Part shown: positions 17,266 to 27,719 of the stretch, in pieces | How the letters are laid out: every line of letters starts with the position of its first letter | Numbering within the stretch: position 1 is the stretch's first letter | Assembly (NCBI GenBank): GCA_002011125.2 | Contig: MTMF02000009.1 | Span: forward strand, 256,001-320,000 | Direction of reading: 5' to 3' | DNA: 64,000 bases | From: Candidatus Hydrothermarchaeum profundi | GTDB taxonomy: Archaea > Hydrothermarchaeota > Hydrothermarchaeia > Hydrothermarchaeales > Hydrothermarchaeaceae | Program-made: the position numbers and the translations under genes | Notes under the pieces: generated by a model | The model's database searches: none | What the model saw: the letters and a program-made list of their open reading frames with translations, nothing else | Told to the model about the DNA's origin: nothing

Positions 17266-17991
17266 ATGATGATACTTCACTTTAAAGAGGTAGATTCTAC
17301 AAACGAGGTGGCTAAGAAGTTAGCAGCAATAGGTGCGCCTGAGTGGACTATAGTATCCTCGGACTCACAGACAGAAGGAAAAGGACGCCTAGGCAGAAGA
17401 TGGATTTCACCCCAGGGAGGCCTGTGGATATCCATAGTCCTTAGACCAGATATAGAAGAGTCTAGACTGCCGATAATCCCTATGGTAAGTGGTATATCGG
17501 TTGCAAAAGTATTATGTGATATGTATGGATTACCAGCTAAGTTAAAGTGGCCGAATGATGTGCTCCTAAAAGAGAGAAAAGTATGCGGAATCCTAGCTGA
17601 AGCAGGTGAAAATGTTGAATATGTGGTTGTCGGTATTGGAATAAACGCCAATATAGATATGAACAAATTTCCTGCTCAACTTCGCAACAGTACAACTACT
17701 ATCAGCACAGAACTAAAAAGAGAAGTTGACTTGAATGCATTAAAGATAGGGCTATTAGATCAGTTTAAAGAGGATTATAATAATCTCATAAGACAAGATT
17801 TCTCTATTTTAAAGGAAGAGTGGAGACACCTCTCCTCAACTCTCGGACAGAAGGTTAAAGTGATAACTCCAAAAGAGATCATAGAAGGAAATGCAATCGA
17901 CATTGACGGCGAAGGAGCGCTGCTCATAGAAGTAAGTGGCCGTATCAAAAGGATTTTTTCTGGAGATTGCATTCACTTAAGTAACTTTTAA
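17266..17991 (+). CDS. birA: Biotin-protein ligase (no HTH domain)
   Basis: STN, QTEGKGRLGRRW, KWPND, KVCGIL and GIGIN motifs. Confidence 0.95.
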   Translation: MMILHFKEVDSTNEVAKKLAAIGAPEWTIVSSDSQTEGKGRLGRRWISPQGGLWISIVLRPDIEESRLPIIPMVSGISVAKVLCDMYGLPAKLKWPNDVLLKERKVCGILAEAGENVEYVVVGIGINANIDMNKFPAQLRNSTTTISTELKREVDLNALKIGLLDQFKEDYNNLIRQDFSILKEEWRHLSSTLGQKVKVITPKEIIEGNAIDIDGEGALLIEVSGRIKRIFSGDCIHLSNF

Positions 17992-18018: not shown

Positions 18019-18837
18019 ATGGAGATCATAACTTCGTATAGACAAGCTCGTTACAATTTCTATAGATGGAGATACGAATCAGGATTTGTGTATAAATTGG
18101 CATTAGCTTTTATGTTTGCCGGATTGACAGGTATTGGAGCTCAGATAAGGATACCCCTCCCTTTTACCCCAGTGCCAATAACTGGCCAAGTCTTTTTTGT
18201 CCTACTTAGCGGCGTAGTACTTGGAAAATATGGCGGACTAAGTCAAGGAATTTACGCTGGGTTAGGGGGCGCTGGTATACCTTGGTTTAATGGTATGAAG
18301 GGAGGCTGGGGTGTTCTCACAGGCGTTACTGGCGGGTATATTCTAGGATTTATCCTTGCAGCAAGTCTCATAGGATGGTTTGTAGATAACTATACTAGGT
18401 CAAGGACTTTTTCTTTCCAATTATCCCTCATGTTCTTAGGAGTAGCAGTTATATATGGACTGGGATCCTTACAATTCTCGCTTGTGTTAGGTACTGGTTT
18501 CAATGAAACTCTTACAAAAGCTGTTTTACCATTTATTCCTGGAGATATTGCTAAAGCCGTGGGGGTAGTGCTTCTAGCAACTGCTATTCTTCCTAAAGAA
18601 AGCTACAACGGAGAAGTGGATTTTGAGTCTACTTCCCATGATAGGCGCCGCCTCTATATGGCCGGGTTTGTTTTTAGTGGATTACTGACATGTTTCTTTT
18701 TACTTTTGTTCTGGGCTAAAATTGTGAGTTTAGGTCAAGCAAATAATTTAATAGTTTTAAAAAACAGCGCTTGGTTTTCTTTATCAGCATTAATAACAGG
18801 GCTTCTCTCTCTTCATTTTTTAAAACTCCTCAGGTAG
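18019..18837 (+). CDS. bioY: Biotin transporter BioY with C-terminal membrane extension
   Basis: PLPFTPVPITGQ, TGGYILGF and LPFIPGD.AK; adjacent to birA. Confidence 0.9.
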   Translation: MEIITSYRQARYNFYRWRYESGFVYKLALAFMFAGLTGIGAQIRIPLPFTPVPITGQVFFVLLSGVVLGKYGGLSQGIYAGLGGAGIPWFNGMKGGWGVLTGVTGGYILGFILAASLIGWFVDNYTRSRTFSFQLSLMFLGVAVIYGLGSLQFSLVLGTGFNETLTKAVLPFIPGDIAKAVGVVLLATAILPKESYNGEVDFESTSHDRRRLYMAGFVFSGLLTCFFLLLFWAKIVSLGQANNLIVLKNSAWFSLSALITGLLSLHFLKLLR

Positions 18838-18887
18838 ACGCTTAAATAAGAAATATCGCTTGATAAAAAACACTTAAGTAAAATTAG

Positions 18888-19046
18888 TGCGGATTCGGAC
18901 GCAGCCGAAAGGTTTGGCACCGTTTGGTCCGAAGACCTTGGGTGCTTTGCCTTTCAGACAGGTGATACCTCCGGAGAGGCATTCCTGTCGCTCGTAGCGG
19001 TTTATCCGAAGACGAACCGCTGCGAATCACTACACCCGAATCCGCA
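18888..19046 (-). ncRNA. Unassigned structured ncRNA candidate (~158 nt, four-way junction)
   Basis: GC-rich stretch in an AT-rich spacer. It has a 17-bp closing helix with G-U pairs only on the minus strand, three internal helices, two C(UUCG)G tetraloops, a TATA element ~25-30 nt upstream and a T6 tract downstream. Confidence 0.75.
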
Positions 19047-19066
19047 AATAGTTGTTGAATTTTATT

Positions 19067-19080
19067 AGTATATATTTATT
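19067..19080 (-). promoter_or_regulatory. Archaeal TATA box for the ncRNA candidate
   Basis: Minus strand AATAAATATATAC, centred ~27 nt upstream of the predicted 5' end (19045-19046). Confidence 0.55.
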
Positions 19081-19135
19081 GTTATTTGTAAACCTTTACT
19101 TCCTCTGAAGCATGTGGAAAAAATGGTAAGAGATT

Positions 19136-20218
19136 TTATATCCAGTCCTTAGATTCTAATTTCTGAGGCAAATACACATCTGTCATAAACGTTATTCCAT
19201 GCTTGGCTAGTGCCTGGAGTTCCGCCTTTTCTCCTCTGCTTATCATGAGCTGAAGCTCTTTTCTCCATTTCTTGTTATTTTTTATCCAAGGATACTCCAG
19301 CATTTTCTGGGCTTTTTTCAAATCCCATTCAGTCATCTTCAGACGGGCTGCCTTAGGAACATTAAATTTGTCTAGGTCACTTGGGAGTAGACCCAAAAGC
19401 TTTGCACTAGGTACGGCGAGATATGCGCTTTCAAAACTTAGTGAGATGCTTCCTCTCTTATAACTTGAACATATTTGCATGCCATAGCTATCGCTGTCTG
19501 TTAGAACATAAACGGGGAGCTTTTCCTCTTTATTTAATCTCCTTATAAGCCTCCTAGTAGCAATGTCAGGCTGTCCTTTTCCGGTGATTAAGAGACATTT
19601 ATTTTTTTTATGGAAATCTTCTTCTATTAATCGTATTAGTGCGGCATCTTTTTCCACTACTAAAATGTAATCCGCTCCGCAGTCTATGATTTCTACTTCA
19701 TCTATAAATGGGCTTATTGACCAGCCGCCTCTACCAAGACTGTTACAGTTGAATGTATCGTTTCCTTCTCTTAAGGTGAGATCCCCTATGCATACGCCCT
19801 TAGCCGAGGCAACTACTCTTAGGCAGGGACGGGTGACTCCGAGCGTCACTGCGATATCTTCTATTATATTGTCACTAGTTTTTTGGTCCTTATTGAAGAG
19901 CTCTGGATCTTGGTAATAAATCTCGCGTTTAGTCAGATGTTTTTCTCTTTCAGCGCTTTCATAAAGTATGCTCATTACATAAAGCATTTGAGTAAATGCT
20001 GTCACTGTTCCGGTATTATGGAAGCTCCTCTGAGACATGCTTTCTCCAATATAAATCAAATCCTTTTTTTCATCGTAAATAAAATTGTCCGCCCCTCGGG
20101 TGGGAACATTAAAAGCCGGGTTTTTTCTGCTTCTTATGTCTCTTGCTATTCCTTTTGCTACTCGCTTTAGCTCCCTTACAAGCTCGCGTGCATCCATTTT
20201 TTCTTTTATTTTTTTCAT
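19136..20218 (-). CDS. top6A: DNA topoisomerase VI subunit A (Spo11 family)
   Basis: KREIYY catalytic Tyr, Toprim VVEKDA and TDSDSYG, ITGKGQPD.ATR, KAELQAL. Confidence 0.93.
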   Translation of the reverse strand: MKKIKEKMDARELVRELKRVAKGIARDIRSRKNPAFNVPTRGADNFIYDEKKDLIYIGESMSQRSFHNTGTVTAFTQMLYVMSILYESAEREKHLTKREIYYQDPELFNKDQKTSDNIIEDIAVTLGVTRPCLRVVASAKGVCIGDLTLREGNDTFNCNSLGRGGWSISPFIDEVEIIDCGADYILVVEKDAALIRLIEEDFHKKNKCLLITGKGQPDIATRRLIRRLNKEEKLPVYVLTDSDSYGMQICSSYKRGSISLSFESAYLAVPSAKLLGLLPSDLDKFNVPKAARLKMTEWDLKKAQKMLEYPWIKNNKKWRKELQLMISRGEKAELQALAKHGITFMTDVYLPQKLESKDWI

Positions 20219-20219
20219 T

Positions 20220-22109
20220 TTAACCCCCCGTTAAAGTCGCTTGCACAGCTATTGGCCTTCTCCTGCGGATTTCTTGAACCAGTGGCTTATAGATTCTCTC
20301 TTTCTTCTCACCGGTCATTTTAGATATCGATTCCGATACTATCTCAGCATGCTTTTCTAGGAATTCCCTCGCTTTCCCTGAAAGTCTGTGTTTCTCCATC
20401 ATGCTAACATGTTTCCTAAGCTTTCTACTAGCCGCCTGTAATGCCCTTTTTATTTCCTCAGCTATAACATCATCCGCCCCAATCGCCTGTTTAGCTACTC
20501 CTAGATACTTGAGCTGTGGTGATGTAACATGAACTACGAAGATAACAGGAGCGCTTGGAAGTGATCCTTTTTTTCCTAGCTTATAGAGAGACCAGTCAAT
20601 TTCTCTCGCTGTTTGAGTGATGATATCGCTTCCAAACTCATATATAAGGGGAGTGCAATTAGCAATTCTTATTAATTTATCTTGGTCTCTAAGATCCGGA
20701 GAAATCTCCCCCCCATACATACCGAGAACCTGAACCTGAACTGGTCTTCCACTAGTGCTGGTCGGCTTCCTTTCCACATAAACATGTTTCTCCGGGTTAT
20801 AAATCGAGACAAAGCCTCTTATTAAGGTTTTTTTAGGTATGGGCATAAGAGAATCCATTGGTGGCGAAGGAAAAGACATTGACCTCAGAGTTTCAGCGAC
20901 TAGCCTAACTTTTTTTTCATCGTTTAATATCATGTTTACAGTAGTTTTTTCTGTAAAAATCTGCTTCGGTAAAGGTTGACCATCAAGCTTGAATAACTTC
21001 TTCAGTTCATTATTGTCGAGAGACCTAATGTTATTGCTAAGTTTACCGCTTATGTAGAGTTTCGCTGCATAATCGCGATCAATATCTACGTCCCTAACCA
21101 GAGTTTTTAGATAAGCACTAATCTTTTCAGGACTCTTTTTAAGTTCTTTAACCTTCTCACTTTGAGCTATTCTCTTGACAATGTCTCCTGCAAAGAAATT
21201 CTGTTGATCAAAATATTGAAGTATCGTAGCTCTCTCTATAAGCTCTTTTATTTTCTTATCGCCGATCCGGCAAAAGTTCTTTTTAAGAAATCCTGCTAAA
21301 GAAATACTTCTTATCCTAGACTGATATGCTAGCAGATCCTTTAATTGACCTATGTCTACCGAGTTAGGATGTGGAGGAACGGGAGCAGGTATCGGTATTC
21401 CCTCGCTTGTTCTTTTTTCATATTTAGTTATGTTTCCATTTTCTTTTAAGATAAAAGTTATATAAGGATGGATTGCCGCCATTCTCCTAATAAACTCTAT
21501 AATATTACCCCGAGCTCGGGAGTAATCCCCTAAGAGAGTTAGAGAGACTCTAGTTCCATGCTCTGGAAATTCGCCTTCATAGGGCTCTTCAACTACCTTG
21601 GTTACTTTGCCCTTACCATAGTCGTAAACATGGCGATGGGCTATTTTTTCTGTAAAAGTTTTACTTATAATTTCCATAGGCTTACCGGTGCTTTGGCTTG
21701 CATATATAGCGGCAGCTTTCCATCCTATACCCTGCTGAGACCTACTAGCTTTATATTCGATTGTACCTGTGCCACCTGCTCGAACAATGATTTGAACCTT
21801 ATTTTTCGGTATTCCTATTCCATTGTCCTGAATACTGATTTGCAGTTCTCCCCGAGATTTATCAACTACTGAAACGCTTACCATAATTTCAGCATTATAA
21901 TCGTCATTCCCAGTTGACCTCAATAATACCTCTCTAGCCTTATCAATAGCGTCTGCTGCATTTTGAACCCCCTCAACGACTGTTTGAAACGGTGCCCTAG
22001 CCTTTTGCCCGAAACCTGTATCAACTCTTTTTAAAAGTTCTTCAGCGGATTGAAGCCGGATATGGTTATGGATCTGCTCTTCTGCTTTTTTCCTTGAAAT
22101 TTTTTTCAT
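20220..22109 (-). CDS. top6B: DNA topoisomerase VI subunit B, divergent (GHKL ATPase, H2TH, transducer)
   Basis: EGVQNAADA, DNGIGI, SRSQQGIG, HGTRV, PHP.SVD, RIANCTPL and AKQAI motifs. Confidence 0.88.
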   Translation of the reverse strand: MKKISRKKAEEQIHNHIRLQSAEELLKRVDTGFGQKARAPFQTVVEGVQNAADAIDKAREVLLRSTGNDDYNAEIMVSVSVVDKSRGELQISIQDNGIGIPKNKVQIIVRAGGTGTIEYKASRSQQGIGWKAAAIYASQSTGKPMEIISKTFTEKIAHRHVYDYGKGKVTKVVEEPYEGEFPEHGTRVSLTLLGDYSRARGNIIEFIRRMAAIHPYITFILKENGNITKYEKRTSEGIPIPAPVPPHPNSVDIGQLKDLLAYQSRIRSISLAGFLKKNFCRIGDKKIKELIERATILQYFDQQNFFAGDIVKRIAQSEKVKELKKSPEKISAYLKTLVRDVDIDRDYAAKLYISGKLSNNIRSLDNNELKKLFKLDGQPLPKQIFTEKTTVNMILNDEKKVRLVAETLRSMSFPSPPMDSLMPIPKKTLIRGFVSIYNPEKHVYVERKPTSTSGRPVQVQVLGMYGGEISPDLRDQDKLIRIANCTPLIYEFGSDIITQTAREIDWSLYKLGKKGSLPSAPVIFVVHVTSPQLKYLGVAKQAIGADDVIAEEIKRALQAASRKLRKHVSMMEKHRLSGKAREFLEKHAEIVSESISKMTGEKKERIYKPLVQEIRRRRPIAVQATLTGG

Positions 22110-22246
22110 TTTTCCTTCCCCTTATATGAGAGATAAAAGTCGATTAAACGATTTACTAGATCGTCGTAGGTTTCTTTTTTCATCCCTATTTCTAGTAACC
22201 TATTTCTGGTTTCCTTGCGCAGTTGTATAGTGGTTATATCTTTCAT
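22106..22246 (-). CDS. 46-aa ribbon-helix-helix (antitoxin/CopG-like) protein, absent from the ORF track
   Basis: MKDITTIQLRKETRNRLLEIGMKKETYDDLVNRLIDFYLSYKGKEK*; its TGA overlaps the top6B ATG (ATGA). Confidence 0.8.
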   Translation of the reverse strand: MKDITTIQLRKETRNRLLEIGMKKETYDDLVNRLIDFYLSYKGKEK

Positions 22247-22288
22247 ATAGTTACTATAGATACTCATAGATATATATAGCTTTATATT
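22247..22288 (-). promoter_or_regulatory. Promoter/operator with four phased ATAG boxes
   Basis: ATAG at 22247, 22256, 22266 and 22276 (9-10 nt spacing), overlapping a TATATATA element upstream of the RHH ATG. Confidence 0.5.
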
Positions 22289-22322
22289 AGAAGAAATAGT
22301 TTTTCCAAGAGCATGGGAAAAA

Positions 22323-22940
22323 TTATAAGATTCTCTCGTATTTTTCTACCTTTCTAAGAAGCTCGTCTCGCTCTTTTTCAATTCCTTGAATCCGCTCCCT
22401 CAATACGCCTAATTCGACTTCATATTTCGTAAGCTTCTTATTTTTCTCCTCCAGCTCCTCTTTCTTATCCTCAGCATATCTCCTAGTAGTACTAGATTCA
22501 ACTTCAAGCTCTCTCACTCTATCTTTAAGCCTATTAATCTCAGTTTCATATTGCGATAATTTATCTTTCTTCTCCTTTAGCTCCATCACTAATGCTTCAT
22601 TTTTGGCTTTTAGCCCAGCGTTCTCATTAGCCAACTCTGAGAACTTTTCTGTCTTACTCTCTAGTTCTGCCTTCAATTTCTCGATAGTTGCTTTAAGCTC
22701 GCTTATTAGCTGATTCTTTTCCTCTACCAAGGCTTCTTTTTCACTTAATTTAGTCTCGGCTCTAATCATGGCTTCTTGGATTGATGCAATTTCCTTTCTA
22801 AGAGACTCAAGCTCCCTATCTTTCTCTCTTATCTCAGATTCTAGCTTTTCCTTACCTGCCAACTCTATTCTAAGTTTTTCTTCTGATTCTTTAAGTTGGC
22901 GTATCTGGGCCTCAAAAAACTCTTTTTCTTTCGTATGCAT
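22323..22940 (-). CDS. Coiled-coil hypothetical protein
   Basis: 205 aa, E/K-rich heptads, no Pro. Confidence 0.75.
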   Translation of the reverse strand: MHTKEKEFFEAQIRQLKESEEKLRIELAGKEKLESEIREKDRELESLRKEIASIQEAMIRAETKLSEKEALVEEKNQLISELKATIEKLKAELESKTEKFSELANENAGLKAKNEALVMELKEKKDKLSQYETEINRLKDRVRELEVESSTTRRYAEDKKEELEEKNKKLTKYEVELGVLRERIQGIEKERDELLRKVEKYERIL

Positions 22941-23586: not shown

Positions 23587-24705
23587 ATGAGGATAGCGCA
23601 TATCTCAGATCTTCATTTTGGATTTGAATTTCTAAAAAATAAGTTTGAAAACGCAATTAAGCAGATAAACAAGCTTGAACCGGATATTACTGTTATCACA
23701 GGAGATATCGGTTTATGGGGAATCCACCACGAGATTAGAAAGGCATATGAGGCACTTTCAGACTTAGAATCCGATCTATTAATTATCCCCGGTAATCATG
23801 ATGCAAGAAATGATGGAATTAAATATTTCAATCTATATTTTGGAAAGACTAAAAGAACCGTAAAAATAGATGACATTGTTTTAATAGGAGTTGACAGCAC
23901 ATTACCTGATTCCGATGATGGCTATATTGGCCCAGAACAGAGGCAGTGGATTGCGAAAAGTGTCAGGCAAAACTGTATTAATATTATTGCAATGCACCAT
24001 CATGTCGTTCCAGTTCCTCATACCGGTAGAAATATGAACGTTTTAATAGATGCTGCCGAGACCGTTGAAAGCCTTACTCTGCATTGCTATGGAGGAATCG
24101 TTCTCGCTGGACACCGGCATGTACCCTACTCAACAAAGCTTTTGAGGACACATATAATTCATGCAGGTTCACTTAGCTCCTATAAAGTACTCATGCCTGA
24201 TAACAATTATAATATCATTGAGATCTCAGAGGACGGAATATCCTTAAAGCTTAGATTCATAGACATCGGAGAAGTTGAAATAGGCAGATTTAAGCTAAAA
24301 CCCGAGACTCCAGAGTCTCTTCGAAAATATCACAAGCTCACGTCAGTGAAAAAGATTCTCTTTATTTCTAAGAGAAATGCCTGCCGAACAAAGATCGCCG
24401 AGGCTTTATTTAACAAGATTTCTCCAGATAATATGTACGCAATAAGTGCTGGAACTGAACCCGCAAAGGATGTCGATCCCATCGTCTCTAAAGTCTTAAT
24501 AGAAATGGGTTTTTCTGTAAGTACACCAAGAAAACTTAGAAGGGGTATGGAGGAAGTAGACTATGTAATCTCTTTTGATGAGGATGTTGATGCTGATGAA
24601 CTCTGGGACATCAAGGTTCCAGTGGATAAAGAGGATTGTAAGAGAGTCGTGAAGAAAATCGAGAAAATGATTAATGAATTAGTAAGAAAAATTATCCTCT
24701 ACTGA
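23587..24705 (+). CDS. Calcineurin-like metallophosphoesterase (Icc/CpdA-like) fused to a degenerate ArsC/LMWP domain
   Basis: SDLH, TGD, GNHD, HHH and GHRH; C-terminal ILFISKRNACRTKIAEA and SAGTEPA. Confidence 0.85.
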   Translation: MRIAHISDLHFGFEFLKNKFENAIKQINKLEPDITVITGDIGLWGIHHEIRKAYEALSDLESDLLIIPGNHDARNDGIKYFNLYFGKTKRTVKIDDIVLIGVDSTLPDSDDGYIGPEQRQWIAKSVRQNCINIIAMHHHVVPVPHTGRNMNVLIDAAETVESLTLHCYGGIVLAGHRHVPYSTKLLRTHIIHAGSLSSYKVLMPDNNYNIIEISEDGISLKLRFIDIGEVEIGRFKLKPETPESLRKYHKLTSVKKILFISKRNACRTKIAEALFNKISPDNMYAISAGTEPAKDVDPIVSKVLIEMGFSVSTPRKLRRGMEEVDYVISFDEDVDADELWDIKVPVDKEDCKRVVKKIEKMINELVRKIILY

Positions 24706-24831: not shown

Positions 24832-25239
24832 TTAACTTTCTGCCCTAGCTATCTCTTCTTCCAAATCCTCAAGAGTGAAGGGCTTTACTGGTATTAAAGG
24901 GAGGATTAGAAGATCCTTCTTAACCTTAGGCGTTACCGTCCTACCTATCTTCTCCAACTCAACTATTCTAAGCTTCTCTAAGATCTTAAGGTCTCTCTCT
25001 ACGGCTGTCAGATCCCTTTTTACCATCTCGGCAAGAGAACTAATAGAAGCCGGTCTCTTCTCTTTGATAGTTCTTATAATCTCCAGTCTTTTCTTAGTGA
25101 ATATCTTAGTAACCTCATCCTCTGAAAGGGAGAGAAGAAGAGATTTCTCCGGCAACTCCTTAAGTCTCCTAGGGTCAGCCCAAAGGCGCTCGAAATACCG
25201 CATTATCCCTTCCCATCTTTCATCCGTCATCTTATACAT
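24832..25239 (-). CDS. HTH DNA-binding protein (HVO_A0114-like putative antitoxin)
   Basis: IFTKKRLEIIRTIKEKRPASISSLAEMVKRDLTAVERDLKILE. Confidence 0.75.
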   Translation of the reverse strand: MYKMTDERWEGIMRYFERLWADPRRLKELPEKSLLLSLSEDEVTKIFTKKRLEIIRTIKEKRPASISSLAEMVKRDLTAVERDLKILEKLRIVELEKIGRTVTPKVKKDLLILPLIPVKPFTLEDLEEEIARAES

Positions 25240-25243
25240 GCGC

Positions 25244-25594
25244 TCACCTCAAACTCATTCTTTCCTCGTAATATTTCCTATATCTCTCATAATTTTCTTT
25301 CACGGCATTCATGAAGAACTCAAAGGTATGCTGTAAAGAATATCCTTCAAAGGTTGGTAATGATATAGGTTCTGGGCTAATCCAAAACCTCTGCTCATGT
25401 AAGTATTCGTGGCAGGTGTCTATTCTATACACCTGATACCAAACATTGCCAAACTTGCACCTTAAATTTATCACAAATCCGGTGATTTTTCCTTTTTCTG
25501 TAACGATTCTAACATCGATGACATCTTTATCTGTCAATGGAACCTCGAAGTCATGGATAGTCCCCATCAATATATACCTTACATTTTTTGTCAA
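25244..25594 (-). CDS. Putative toxin (DUF6516/TumE/DUF7718-like)
   Basis: W..VYRIDTCHEYLHEQRFW motif; upstream of the HTH gene. Confidence 0.6.
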   Translation of the reverse strand: MTKNVRYILMGTIHDFEVPLTDKDVIDVRIVTEKGKITGFVINLRCKFGNVWYQVYRIDTCHEYLHEQRFWISPEPISLPTFEGYSLQHTFEFFMNAVKENYERYRKYYEERMSLR

Positions 25595-25853
25595 CTATTT
25601 CTAAATTAAAAATATTTAAACCTTGCTCATTGTTATGCCCACCAAAGAAACCAGGAAATTTTCTAGTTTAGATCAACAATTTAAATGATGACAAAAATTT
25701 TATTAAATTATAGCTAAACCAGGTTATTTTTAAAAATTTAACATGTAAAGTGGAGTATGGTAAATATCTGCGAAAGTCTGAACTTGAGTGCCAAACTGCA
25801 TGGTTTTTTTAGAGATTAGAGATTGCTTAAATATCATGCCCCTTCTAGTGGTT

Positions 25854-26486
25854 TTATTCTTCAGTCCAATACTCTACCCATCTTTTATAAGGATTATAAT
25901 CCACCTCTCTCCGTTGCCAATTTATTTCAATAACTTTAGTTTCTCCATTTCTAACCAAGCGTGATAATGCATTACTCGAAATTTCTACACCTCTAGGGTT
26001 TGTACCTGGTTTAGGAAGTTTAATATATTCCTCTCTCCCCATTTCCTCAAAGAGTTCTTCTTGAATTCTTAAAGGTATGTAATAAAAACCTCCCGTTGCA
26101 TTCCAGATGATTTGTACAAACAAAATATCACATCGAGGATAATAATTCTCACGAAATTGCCGTGCCATCTCAGCATCCACCGTCCATATGAGTTTCACTC
26201 CACTAAATGAAGTCCCTGTTTTTGTTTTAATGGAAATAGGCTGCCCATATAACATCACATCAATCTCTGGTTCAGTAATAGGCACTTCGGTCTCTACATT
26301 TTTTATACCGAATTTATGAATAAGCAAGGCAACTATTATCTTTTCCCGAAAAGAACCTACCTCCATCCCAATTTTCCCGGCACGGGAACTTTCTAACTCT
26401 GCAAGCTGGAACAAATAAGGTAATCGCCTTCTAATTTTATCTACGAGTCTTTCATCTTGAAATATCTCTACTAAGTGACTAGACAT
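25854..26486 (-). CDS. ThaI-family type II restriction endonuclease
   Basis: LFQLAELESSRAGKIGMEVGS.RE, EIDV..YGQPISIKT, GTNPRGVE; MTase nearby. Confidence 0.85.
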   Translation of the reverse strand: MSSHLVEIFQDERLVDKIRRRLPYLFQLAELESSRAGKIGMEVGSFREKIIVALLIHKFGIKNVETEVPITEPEIDVMLYGQPISIKTKTGTSFSGVKLIWTVDAEMARQFRENYYPRCDILFVQIIWNATGGFYYIPLRIQEELFEEMGREEYIKLPKPGTNPRGVEISSNALSRLVRNGETKVIEINWQRREVDYNPYKRWVEYWTEE

Positions 26487-26559
26487 TAAGTGATTGCTTT
26501 CTATGGAGAATTTAAAAAATTACGTAACATTTATATGACTATTAATTAACATTTAACTG

Positions 26560-26814
26560 ATGGATTATAATTTGCTGGGTTTCATTAAGGCCAGTAAGCA
26601 TAGGGAGGATATCGTAAAAATTCTAGAGGAGGAGATACTTACTCCAACAGAAATATCAAATAGACTTAACCTGCATACTTCTCAGGTTAGTAGATATCTT
26701 TCAGAATTAGTTGGGAAGGGGGTAGTCCAAGTATTAACGCCTAATTTAAGAAAGGGAAAAGTATATTCTCTTACCGAAGAAGGTAAAAAATGTCTAAATA
26801 GTCTCAAAAGGTGA
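26560..26814 (+). CDS. Winged-HTH regulator (ArsR/MarR-like), probable R-M controller
   Basis: TPTEIS..L....SQVSRYLSELV.KG.V...RKGKVYSLTEEG; overlaps the MTase start. Confidence 0.8.
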   Translation: MDYNLLGFIKASKHREDIVKILEEEILTPTEISNRLNLHTSQVSRYLSELVGKGVVQVLTPNLRKGKVYSLTEEGKKCLNSLKR

Positions 26815-27719
26815 CTTTGATGAAAAGAAAGGGCACAAAAACCAGTAGATTCGGCGTGTCTAAAAGAGAGAGCCATGACTCGGCCTTATTCTATAGTAGC
26901 AGATTATATGAAGATTTCAAAATAGATGAGAAAAAACCTGAAGTCGAGAACCCGATAAGCGAGGATGTACTGGACAAGGTTTTGTGTCAGGATAGCCGAG
27001 ACATGAGCAATATCCCGGATTCAAGTGTGCATCTGATGGTTACCTCTCCTCCTTACAATGTTTCTAAGGAGTATGATAGGGATTTAACCATGGAGGAGTA
27101 CGCCGAATTATTAAGGGATGTTTTCACTGAAACATATAGGGTATTAGTTAGTGGGGGCAGGGTTTGTGTAAATATCGCCAATGTTGGTAGGCGGCCCTAT
27201 ATTCCTTATCATAGCTTTATCATCAACATAATGCTGGACATCGGGTTTCTAATGAGAGGAGAGATTATCTGGAATAAAAACGCTAGCGCCGGGACTTCTA
27301 CCGCATGGGGTAGTTGGAAATCGGCGTCTAATCCTACCCTAAGAGATATTCATGAGTATATCTTGGTTTTCTCGAAGGATAAGTTCACGAGAAAAAAAGG
27401 GAAAAAAGAGAGCACGATAACACGGGAAGAGTTCCTTGAGTTTACTAAAAGTATCTGGGAATTCCCTGCGGAGTCAGCAAAAAAAGTAGGGCATCCTGCC
27501 CCATTCCCTGTGGAATTACCCTACCGGTGCATACAGCTCTATACCTTTAAAGATGAAGTGGTCTTAGACCCCTTCTGCGGCGTGGGGACTACATGTGTTG
27601 CTGCAGTAAAAGCTAATAGGCACTTCATAGGACTAGATAACAACCCGGAATATGTAAAAAAGGCAAATAAGAGAATAAAGAAATATTTAGCCCAGACCTC
27701 CTTACCAGCATTTCAATAA
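26811..27719 (+). CDS. Site-specific DNA methyltransferase (beta class, likely m4C)
   Basis: VTSPPY precedes HPAPFP and VLDPFCGVGTT. Confidence 0.93.
   Translation: MTLMKRKGTKTSRFGVSKRESHDSALFYSSRLYEDFKIDEKKPEVENPISEDVLDKVLCQDSRDMSNIPDSSVHLMVTSPPYNVSKEYDRDLTMEEYAELLRDVFTETYRVLVSGGRVCVNIANVGRRPYIPYHSFIINIMLDIGFLMRGEIIWNKNASAGTSTAWGSWKSASNPTLRDIHEYILVFSKDKFTRKKGKKESTITREEFLEFTKSIWEFPAESAKKVGHPAPFPVELPYRCIQLYTFKDEVVLDPFCGVGTTCVAAVKANRHFIGLDNNPEYVKKANKRIKKYLAQTSLPAFQ

Follow-up and report, generated by a model that had tools for sequence, protein, structure and literature searches.

The window analysed here, a 64,000-nucleotide stretch of the genome of Candidatus Hydrothermarchaeum profundi (G000; contig C9, positions 256001-320000), carries on its minus strand a small open reading frame (ORF) of the DUF7557 type, followed by top6B and top6A, which encode the two subunits of DNA topoisomerase VI (topo VI), and, about 90 nt past the top6A stop codon, a gene for a structured non-coding RNA (ncRNA). 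An initial annotation made from the sequence alone had described these co-oriented elements, and all of them were found where it had placed them. That annotation went on to propose a three-part system, in which an accessory topo VI paralogue was possibly associated with the RNA. The present account deals with the enzyme and its operon, with the RNA gene, and with the question of whether the two belong together.

The genome of G000 is 2.19 Mb long and 97.65% complete, and it was compared within a set of 38 Hydrothermarchaeota genomes of which it is one; families and genera in this set are given codes (f and g) used only here. Most of the 38 genomes are fragmented assemblies, and the absence of topo VI or of the RNA from any of them is to be read as "not found". 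Searches of the literature, from which most subscription papers fell outside, found no publication joining "Hydrothermarchae" with "Top6B", and no title, which was the main basis of judgement, dealt with the topo VI of Hydrothermarchaeota or with the structured RNA.

The topoisomerase VI operon

The gene top6B (20220..22109, minus strand) encodes a protein of 629 amino acids (aa) made up of a GHKL domain, an H2TH domain, a clade-specific insert, a transducer domain and a helical C-terminus, and it is separated from top6A by 1 nt. Its structural model had a predicted local distance difference test (pLDDT) score of 90 and a predicted template-modelling (pTM) score of 0.87, and the top Foldseek matches were 2hkj, 1z59 and 1mu5, with a TM score by target of up to 0.88. 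The N and G boxes of the GHKL fold and the switch lysine had been called conserved, and alignment confirmed this for the N box, the G1 box, the G3 box and the transducer switch lysine K540; the residues kept are E46, N50, D95-x-G97-x-G99, G127, G129, G185, K540, W506 and Y509. In M. mazei Top6 (PMC13040014), the metal is bound by the counterparts of this N-box Glu and Asn, and that of the lysine contacts the gamma phosphate. The H2TH domain is likewise present, as it could be aligned to 2zbk_B up to aa 294 and the model has helices at H253-302.

The motifs EGVQNAADA and GGTGTIEY reported for Top6B were both there, the second of them at the start of a rewritten ATP lid (21735..21776, minus strand; aa 112-125) that reads GGTGT[IV][ED]Y[KR]ASRSQ and in which the basic residue of GS[KR]F is missing. 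The slightly longer motif GGTGT[IV][ED]Y[KR]ASRSQQG was found in all 19 clade sequences that cover the region, and the same 19 of 19 share a change that the initial annotation had missed, namely a Ser in place of the first Gly of the G2 box (RSQQG for RGxxG). Compared with the canonical lid and G2 box (GS[KR]F ... RGxxGxG), G127 and G129 are kept, whereas the first Gly has become Ser and the basic lid residue is missing in 19 of 19. The confidence of the Top6B model was low at lid residues 114-116. The fixed nature of the lid changes would suggest selection on a new lid and not decay.

The insertion of about 100 aa that had been placed after the H2TH domain was found at about aa 295-395 (20925..21227, minus strand). 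It is all-helical in the model (pLDDT 83) and is 52-65% identical within the clade. A profile search with the insert returned 55 proteins, all of them full or partial Top6B of this type, and a structure search over 48,161 chains gave a best match of Z 4.0, with none above Z 4.0. The insert is confined to the Top6B of this clade. Among 1.84 billion cluster representatives, the clade was represented by one full-length Top6B (69%) and one fragment (67%), and the other 148 Top6B matches listed there were 26-35% identical.

With archaeal topo VI in general (PF04406/PF21180 and PF09239; PDB 2zbk, 1mu5, 2q2e and 9o8p), the enzyme shares the B-A operon, the domain order and the fold, as well as the catalytic Tyr, the Toprim acidic residues, the clasp, the N, G1 and G3 boxes and the switch Lys. 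Unlike archaeal topo VI, it has the rewritten lid, the Ser in the G2 box, the insert of about 100 aa, and WSxY or WxxY in place of WKxY; its operon is preceded by a DUF7557 gene and does not lie at the rio1-KH locus. Among NCBIfam models, it passes the cut-off only for NF003218, its scores for TIGR01052 and every Top6A model staying below theirs. In terms of sequence, the enzyme appears to be a remodelled form of topo VI restricted to one archaeal order.

The A subunit, encoded by top6A (19136..20218, minus strand; 360 aa), carries R98/Y102, E189, D241-x-D243 and the clasp residue E333. Alignment to 2zbk and 2q2e and across the clade found the R98/E333 clasp kept along with the catalytic Tyr (Y102) and the Toprim acidic residues (E189, D241 and D243), the last two features having been noted as conserved before. 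In one relative (G020, contig C168), top6A contains one in-frame TAG, for which readthrough and an assembly error are both possible.

The best named relatives of this Top6A outside the clade were Asgard proteins from Baldrarchaeia, Odinarchaeia, Promethearchaeota and Helarchaeota, at 44-49% identity, with one further protein at 53%; across 163 outside genomes, the top eight Top6A matches had 43-49% identity. For the ten nearest outside proteins, the only lineage names obtained were Desulfurococcales and Aenigmarchaeota. When measured by identity, not phylogeny, the nearest of 17 outside genomes by RpoA1 (G066, 70%) yet had a Top6A of 35%, and four genomes at 57-65% RpoA1 identity gave Top6A values of 44-49%. 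The close match in G049 and in G072 was that genome's higher-scoring Top6A and not a divergent second copy. Top6B was without this Asgard pull, as the Top6B of G072 was about 29% identical to that of G000 vs 27-31% for the Top6B of G066, and this Top6B of G072, encoded next to an Asgard-type Top6A, keeps a lid lysine and is without the insert, unlike that of G000. Loss followed by re-acquisition from an Asgard-like donor is possible. In a preprint (bioRxiv 10.1101/2025.02.13.637844), Top6A was dropped as a marker owing to mixed orthologues. At two loci (L198 and L199, in G195 and G072), the Top6B beside the closest outside Top6A was divergent in a way of its own, with a long N-terminal insert; in G195, these genes face rio1 and KH genes, and extra divergent Top6A-like genes are carried by G049, G072 and G135.

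The first gene of the operon encodes the small DUF7557 protein (22106..22246, minus strand), which has 46 aa, or 53 aa if it is read from the first ATG at 22267 (ORF 22106-22267). It matched Pfam PF24434 (DUF7557) at 37.9 bits against a cut-off of 25, and searches of PHROGs and of PDB sequences returned no significant match. The start is most likely the second ATG, at 22246, because only 3 nt separate the first from the operon's predicted TATA box (22270..22279, minus strand) and homologues align from the second. This TATA box, which is kept in all 12 of the upstream regions aligned and is preceded by an A-rich stretch like a transcription factor B recognition element, stands about 24 nt before the second ATG, which points to a 46-aa protein made from a leaderless message. 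Degenerate ACTAT/ATAGT half-sites between the TATA box and the start codon (22247..22269, minus strand) form a candidate operator, which in the AT-rich sequence of G000 is a perfect inverted repeat, TATAGT-A-ACTATA, and at which the small protein may bind.

The ATGA overlap that had been reported between the small ORF and top6B is real in G000 but not general among relatives, in several of which the small gene lies some tens of bases upstream of top6B (tblastn). The gene is the only DUF7557 copy in G000. Its place ahead of top6B is shared by 14 of 19 relatives and holds for 7 of 8 families, with no copy there in five of five genomes of family f8; the protein is 58-85% identical across families. 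With other DUF7557 small proteins it has in common the Pfam match, a beta-strand-like ITTIQL start and a place as the leaderless first gene of an operon. Unlike them, it has only 46 aa, without a C-terminal extension, no toxin gene stands alongside, and it is fixed before top6B in those seven families. Members of DUF7557 are, we presume, ribbon-helix-helix repressors of the antitoxin type, and self-repression of the operon by this small predicted ribbon-helix-helix protein is plausible.

The structured RNA gene

The RNA gene (18885..19048, minus strand) is GC-rich and about 160 nt long. An 18-bp helix closes its predicted structure, from which three hairpins branch, and hardly any bases are left unpaired where the four arms, of about 13-20 bp, meet in a four-way junction. 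The hairpins are mostly capped by UNCG-type loops, and the RNA ends are 5'-GCG ... CGCACU(U/A)-3', followed by a T run. The fold has an energy of -87 kcal/mol and a z of -9.46 on the minus strand vs -7.56 on the plus strand, and 0 of 200 shuffles were as good; folding so far beyond that of shuffles confirms the structured RNA that had been proposed downstream of top6A. Homologues were first reached in G006 and G019, through a weak blastn match and inspection of the downstream region. Across 41 genomes, blastn with the RNA as query returned only weak matches, among them the true G006 homologue; covariance models were needed, and three rounds of these located the RNA in 9 of 41, then 19 of 38 and then 21 of 38 genomes.

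The alignment of 24 sequences has a mean identity of 50%, one partly misaligned row (L116) having been kept. Changes on both sides were counted in 56 of 62 pairs with these 24 sequences and in 48 of 62 with the first 11, levels that 0 of 500 shuffles reached. Pairing was found for 89.9% of cells among the 24 sequences vs 35-45% for slid partners, and the two alignments, of 11 and 24 sequences, together gave 90-91% vs 30-50%. Single homologues folded unaided to the same shape, and four copies from genus g18 gave the four-way structure with z values of -7.3 to -8.1. Helix lengths and pairing are kept throughout; the sequence itself is kept at the closing helix and the ends, the 3' tail, the loop caps and a GAAAG/CUUUC stem, and is free elsewhere. 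All 24 sequences have the same G-C and C-G pairs beside the helix end, and no stretch is better conserved than the 3' tail.

A predicted TATA box (19069..19077, minus strand) lies about 25-30 nt before the first paired G, and upstream of it an element made of two or three 9-bp-period direct repeats (19094..19118, minus strand) is a candidate transcription-factor site. Among 23 aligned upstream regions, an A/T-rich TATA-like box recurs at a fixed distance, and most, across families, have the 9-bp-period repeats as well. From this box and repeat element, the RNA is predicted to be a gene of its own with its own promoter. A run of six T (19118..19123, minus strand), 12 nt after the top6A stop, is a candidate archaeal terminator. 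The upstream element had one exact match in G000 and 5 one-mismatch matches, vs 4 in the control; genome matches were at chance level, and the element was rejected as the mark of a regulon. It was also rejected as a general promoter motif of stable RNAs, as it was not seen before the genes for the signal recognition particle (SRP) RNA, RNase P and tRNA-Phe. Two RNA copies were present in G010 (L108/L117), G011 (L107/L118), G022 (L105/L106) and G027 (L111/L119), and in G010 and G011 the second copy has a weaker upstream element.

Rfam 15 gave no gathering-level match for the RNA, the best reaching 13.4 bits vs a cut-off of 47, and over 14 homologous loci no Rfam match ran across the RNA at E up to 5. 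Several identities were considered and rejected. A Y RNA is contradicted by the lack of Ro60/TROVE in 38 of 38 genomes (control positive in 2 of 14), and a substitute for SRP RNA, RNase P or 5S by the normal genes for all three elsewhere in G000. ARAGORN called none of the RNAs in 24 loci a tRNA or transfer-messenger RNA, and a repeated mobile element does not agree with the single copy in G000 and with the lack of matches in phages or plasmids. Viral contigs held 0 matches for one end-to-end RNA pattern, no holder of the RNA was listed among sequencing runs, and a search of 40 genomes outside the phylum gave a single weak match, at 26 bits, which was rejected as a purine/pyrimidine low-complexity stretch.

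The analogies that come to mind are Y RNA, 6S RNA, the SRP Alu domain and viral VA-type decoys, which have in common with it a length of about 150-170 nt, paired ends, a U-rich end and a promoter of their own. Unlike these, the RNA described here has no Rfam match and a predicted tight four-way junction, and it occurs in genomes without Ro60/TROVE. To our knowledge, few archaeal ncRNA classes of about this size are known, and the family is apparently undescribed.

Distribution and neighbourhood

Searches of G000 by tblastn and with the Pfam models PF21180 and PF09239 (one match each) located one top6A and one top6B locus. The enzyme had been proposed to be an accessory paralogue; a second canonical top6BA was looked for in G000 and none was found, so that this top6BA is the sole topo VI of the genome and not an accessory copy. 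The remark that top6BA is not in its usual rio1/KH setting was upheld, as the rio1-KH pair of G000 is located at about 1.35 Mb, with no top6 gene within the 8.5 kb examined there. No second full-length topo VI was found in any Hydrothermarchaeota clade genome searched, and the extra Top6A matches in G010 (109 aa), G015 (58 aa) and G020 (36 aa) are fragments. Orthologues of Top6B, at 68-78% identity, are present in 19 of the 37 other genomes of the phylum and span 8 families, from which top6BA looks vertically kept within the order. With G000 and with G029, which was recognised through a Top6A fragment, this brings topo VI to 21 of 38 genomes.

None of the 16 genomes of families f2 (11), f7 (2), f11 (2) and f12 (1) yielded a topo VI, nor did G003, which is 62% complete. 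The five genomes of genus g18 were without a match in searches for Top6B, Top6A and PF21180, and the three tested with PF09239 were without a match there too; one weak unlisted Top6A match in G032 of this genus (E 7.6e-4) was repeated by neither Pfam model. GyrA was over the cut-off in 37 of 38 genomes. Families f2, f7, f11 and f12, with gyrase present and topo VI not found, may be a second case of replacement by gyrase beside that of Thermoplasmatales.

When the two elements were compared across the 38 genomes, 15 had both, 6 had topo VI only (G001, G005, G007, G008, G016 and G029), the RNA alone was found in 6 (G003 and the five genomes of g18), and 11 were without either. By family and genus, the RNA turned up in g18, f1, f4, f5, f8, f9 and f10, whereas searches of g3, g12, f3, f6, f7, f11 and f12 did not find it. 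No statistic is attached to these counts, as related genomes are not independent and the assemblies are fragmented. In one g18 genome (G026; 99% complete, 20 contigs), the RNA and gyrase were found and no topo VI was detected. The proposed association of the RNA with topo VI did not survive this comparison, since the RNA occurs without topo VI in five of five g18 genomes, and the three-part system fell with it, as neither element is restricted to the holders of the other.

Of the 15 genomes with both elements, 4 (G000, G019, G006 and G002, from 3 families) have the RNA no more than 2 kb downstream of top6A, and 3 of 18 metagenome loci likewise have it on the downstream side of top6A; in G006 and G002, a toxin-antitoxin pair or other genes intervene. 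It is also beside bioY, or one gene from it, in G000, G006, G014, G015 and G022, and has unrelated neighbours elsewhere. In the window, bioY (18019..18837, plus strand) is convergent on the RNA gene and, with birA at 17266-17991, belongs to the same old neighbourhood. The simplest view is that top6BA, RNA and bioY-birA once stood in this order, which was then broken up in various ways; the nearness of RNA and top6A in four genomes of three families is more than one accident, and is equally explained by such an old gene order.

As judged by eye, top6A is followed in G006 by an AbrB/VapC-like toxin-antitoxin pair (L031 1740-2350) and in G011 (L006) by an antitoxin resembling the DUF7557 small protein together with a RelE-like gene. 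The site right after top6A seems to attract insertions.

Further along the window, a 205-aa pure coiled-coil protein with no family over the cut-off is encoded directly upstream of the topo VI operon (22323-22940, minus strand), and a metallophosphoesterase fused to a low-molecular-weight phosphatase domain lies at 23587-24705 (plus strand). Adjoining tRNA-Phe is a small defence-like cluster (24832-27719) with an HVO_A0114-type helix-turn-helix (HTH) gene with DUF7718, a ThaI-family endonuclease, an HTH regulator and a DNA methyltransferase-like gene.

Two probably separate units and their possible roles

The locus probably holds two separate neighbouring units, a likely self-repressed operon for a decatenase topo VI and an independent gene for a protein-binding ncRNA. 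Gyrase would have taken over the control of supercoiling, after which topo VI was lost in some families and left to drift in others, the B2A2 enzyme serving as a slow or specialised decatenase beside gyrase. A division of this kind, with decatenation by topo VI and supercoiling by gyrase, is proposed for gyrase-bearing archaea in PMC9348778. The insert may extend the DNA-binding face of the H2TH domain, with ATP coupling altered, and the leaderless repressor would bind the half-sites between the TATA box and the start codon and limit a DNA-cutting enzyme. The RNA would be regulated, stable and recognised by shape, likely as a scaffold or decoy for a protein, with topo VI not needed. Its kept pairing and helix lengths, free sequence and inert loop caps argue for recognition by protein of the shape and the paired ends, and these features point away from guiding, catalysis or ligand sensing.

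Several points weigh against this division into two units. The lid changes could mean that ATPase activity was lost, covariation was counted in alignments fitted to the structure, and the last covariance model had been trained on a set that included three of the g18 matches (G026, G028 and G032); for G031 and G033, the model that located the RNA had been built without these two. All eight relatives found with the first, single-sequence model belong to families with this topo VI, and the RNA stands downstream of top6A in four genomes of three families and in three of 18 metagenome loci, so that an ancestral link is possible. The assemblies are fragmented, and top6A is at or near a contig end in G001, G005 and G029.

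On another reading, the enzyme has left ordinary topoisomerase work and, with weak ATP binding or hydrolysis by its rewritten lid form, acts in a regulated complex for DNA cleavage or repair. It would then parallel the Spo11/TopoVIB-like meiotic complex, which likewise joins a type IIB A subunit to a divergent B partner, and a role in cutting DNA would explain the need for a repressor. The changed basic lid residue and first G2 Gly in 19 of 19, the low identity of Top6B to full-length proteins outside the clade (26-35%), the nearness of Top6A to Asgard proteins (45-49%) and the failure to find topo VI in whole sister families are all in keeping with this. We nevertheless consider it unlikely, as the N-box Glu and Asn, the G1 box, the G3 Gly, the switch Lys, the H2TH domain, the transducer and the cleavage-restraining clasp are kept, whereas TopoVIB-like subunits are described in PMC11302465 as without N box and H2TH, both of which G000 Top6B has. 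The idea that this is an accessory paralogue alongside a housekeeping topo VI, and that the RNA serves it as a dedicated guide or scaffold, draws on adjacency, on the position away from the rio1-KH locus and on the operon's own repressor-like gene. It can scarcely be maintained now that no second topo VI has been found in G000 or in any clade genome searched and that the RNA occurs without topo VI; the RNA, moreover, has no variable single-stranded segment fit for a guide.

As for the RNA, the four arms of its predicted junction, each some 13-20 bp long and free in sequence, resemble a DNA crossover, and crossovers and bent DNA are what Top6 prefers according to PMC13040014. The RNA might have arisen beside top6BA as a crossover mimic, a decoy or inhibitor of type II topoisomerases, and would then be a new archaeal ncRNA class with its own transcription factor and with the remodelled topo VI as its first partner; gyrase or another junction-binding protein would keep it useful where topo VI was lost. 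The nearness of the RNA to top6A in three families, GyrA in all RNA-bearing genomes and the clade-only insert adjoining the DNA-binding H2TH domain fit with this, but the RNA was not found in 6 topo VI genomes, two of them 96-97% complete, nor in the 11 genomes with gyrase and neither element, and it is tied to bioY as tightly as to top6A. The A-form helices of RNA are, besides, poor copies of DNA duplexes, and this reading is quite improbable. Somewhat differently, the GCG/CGC closing pairs and the 4-nt 3' overhang could copy an acceptor stem and make the RNA a tRNA-end mimic or processing substrate, to which the invariant G-C and C-G pairs at the helix end (24/24) and the well-kept 3' tail would correspond. 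With no T or D loop, no ARAGORN call in 24 loci and a predicted tail that is not CCA, such mimicry is highly improbable.

A gyrase-bearing phylum in which topo VI was either not found or is remodelled offers a natural test of the role of topo VI beside gyrase, and of which ATP-lid residues topo VI needs. The RNA family would itself qualify as new if it could be given a partner or a function.

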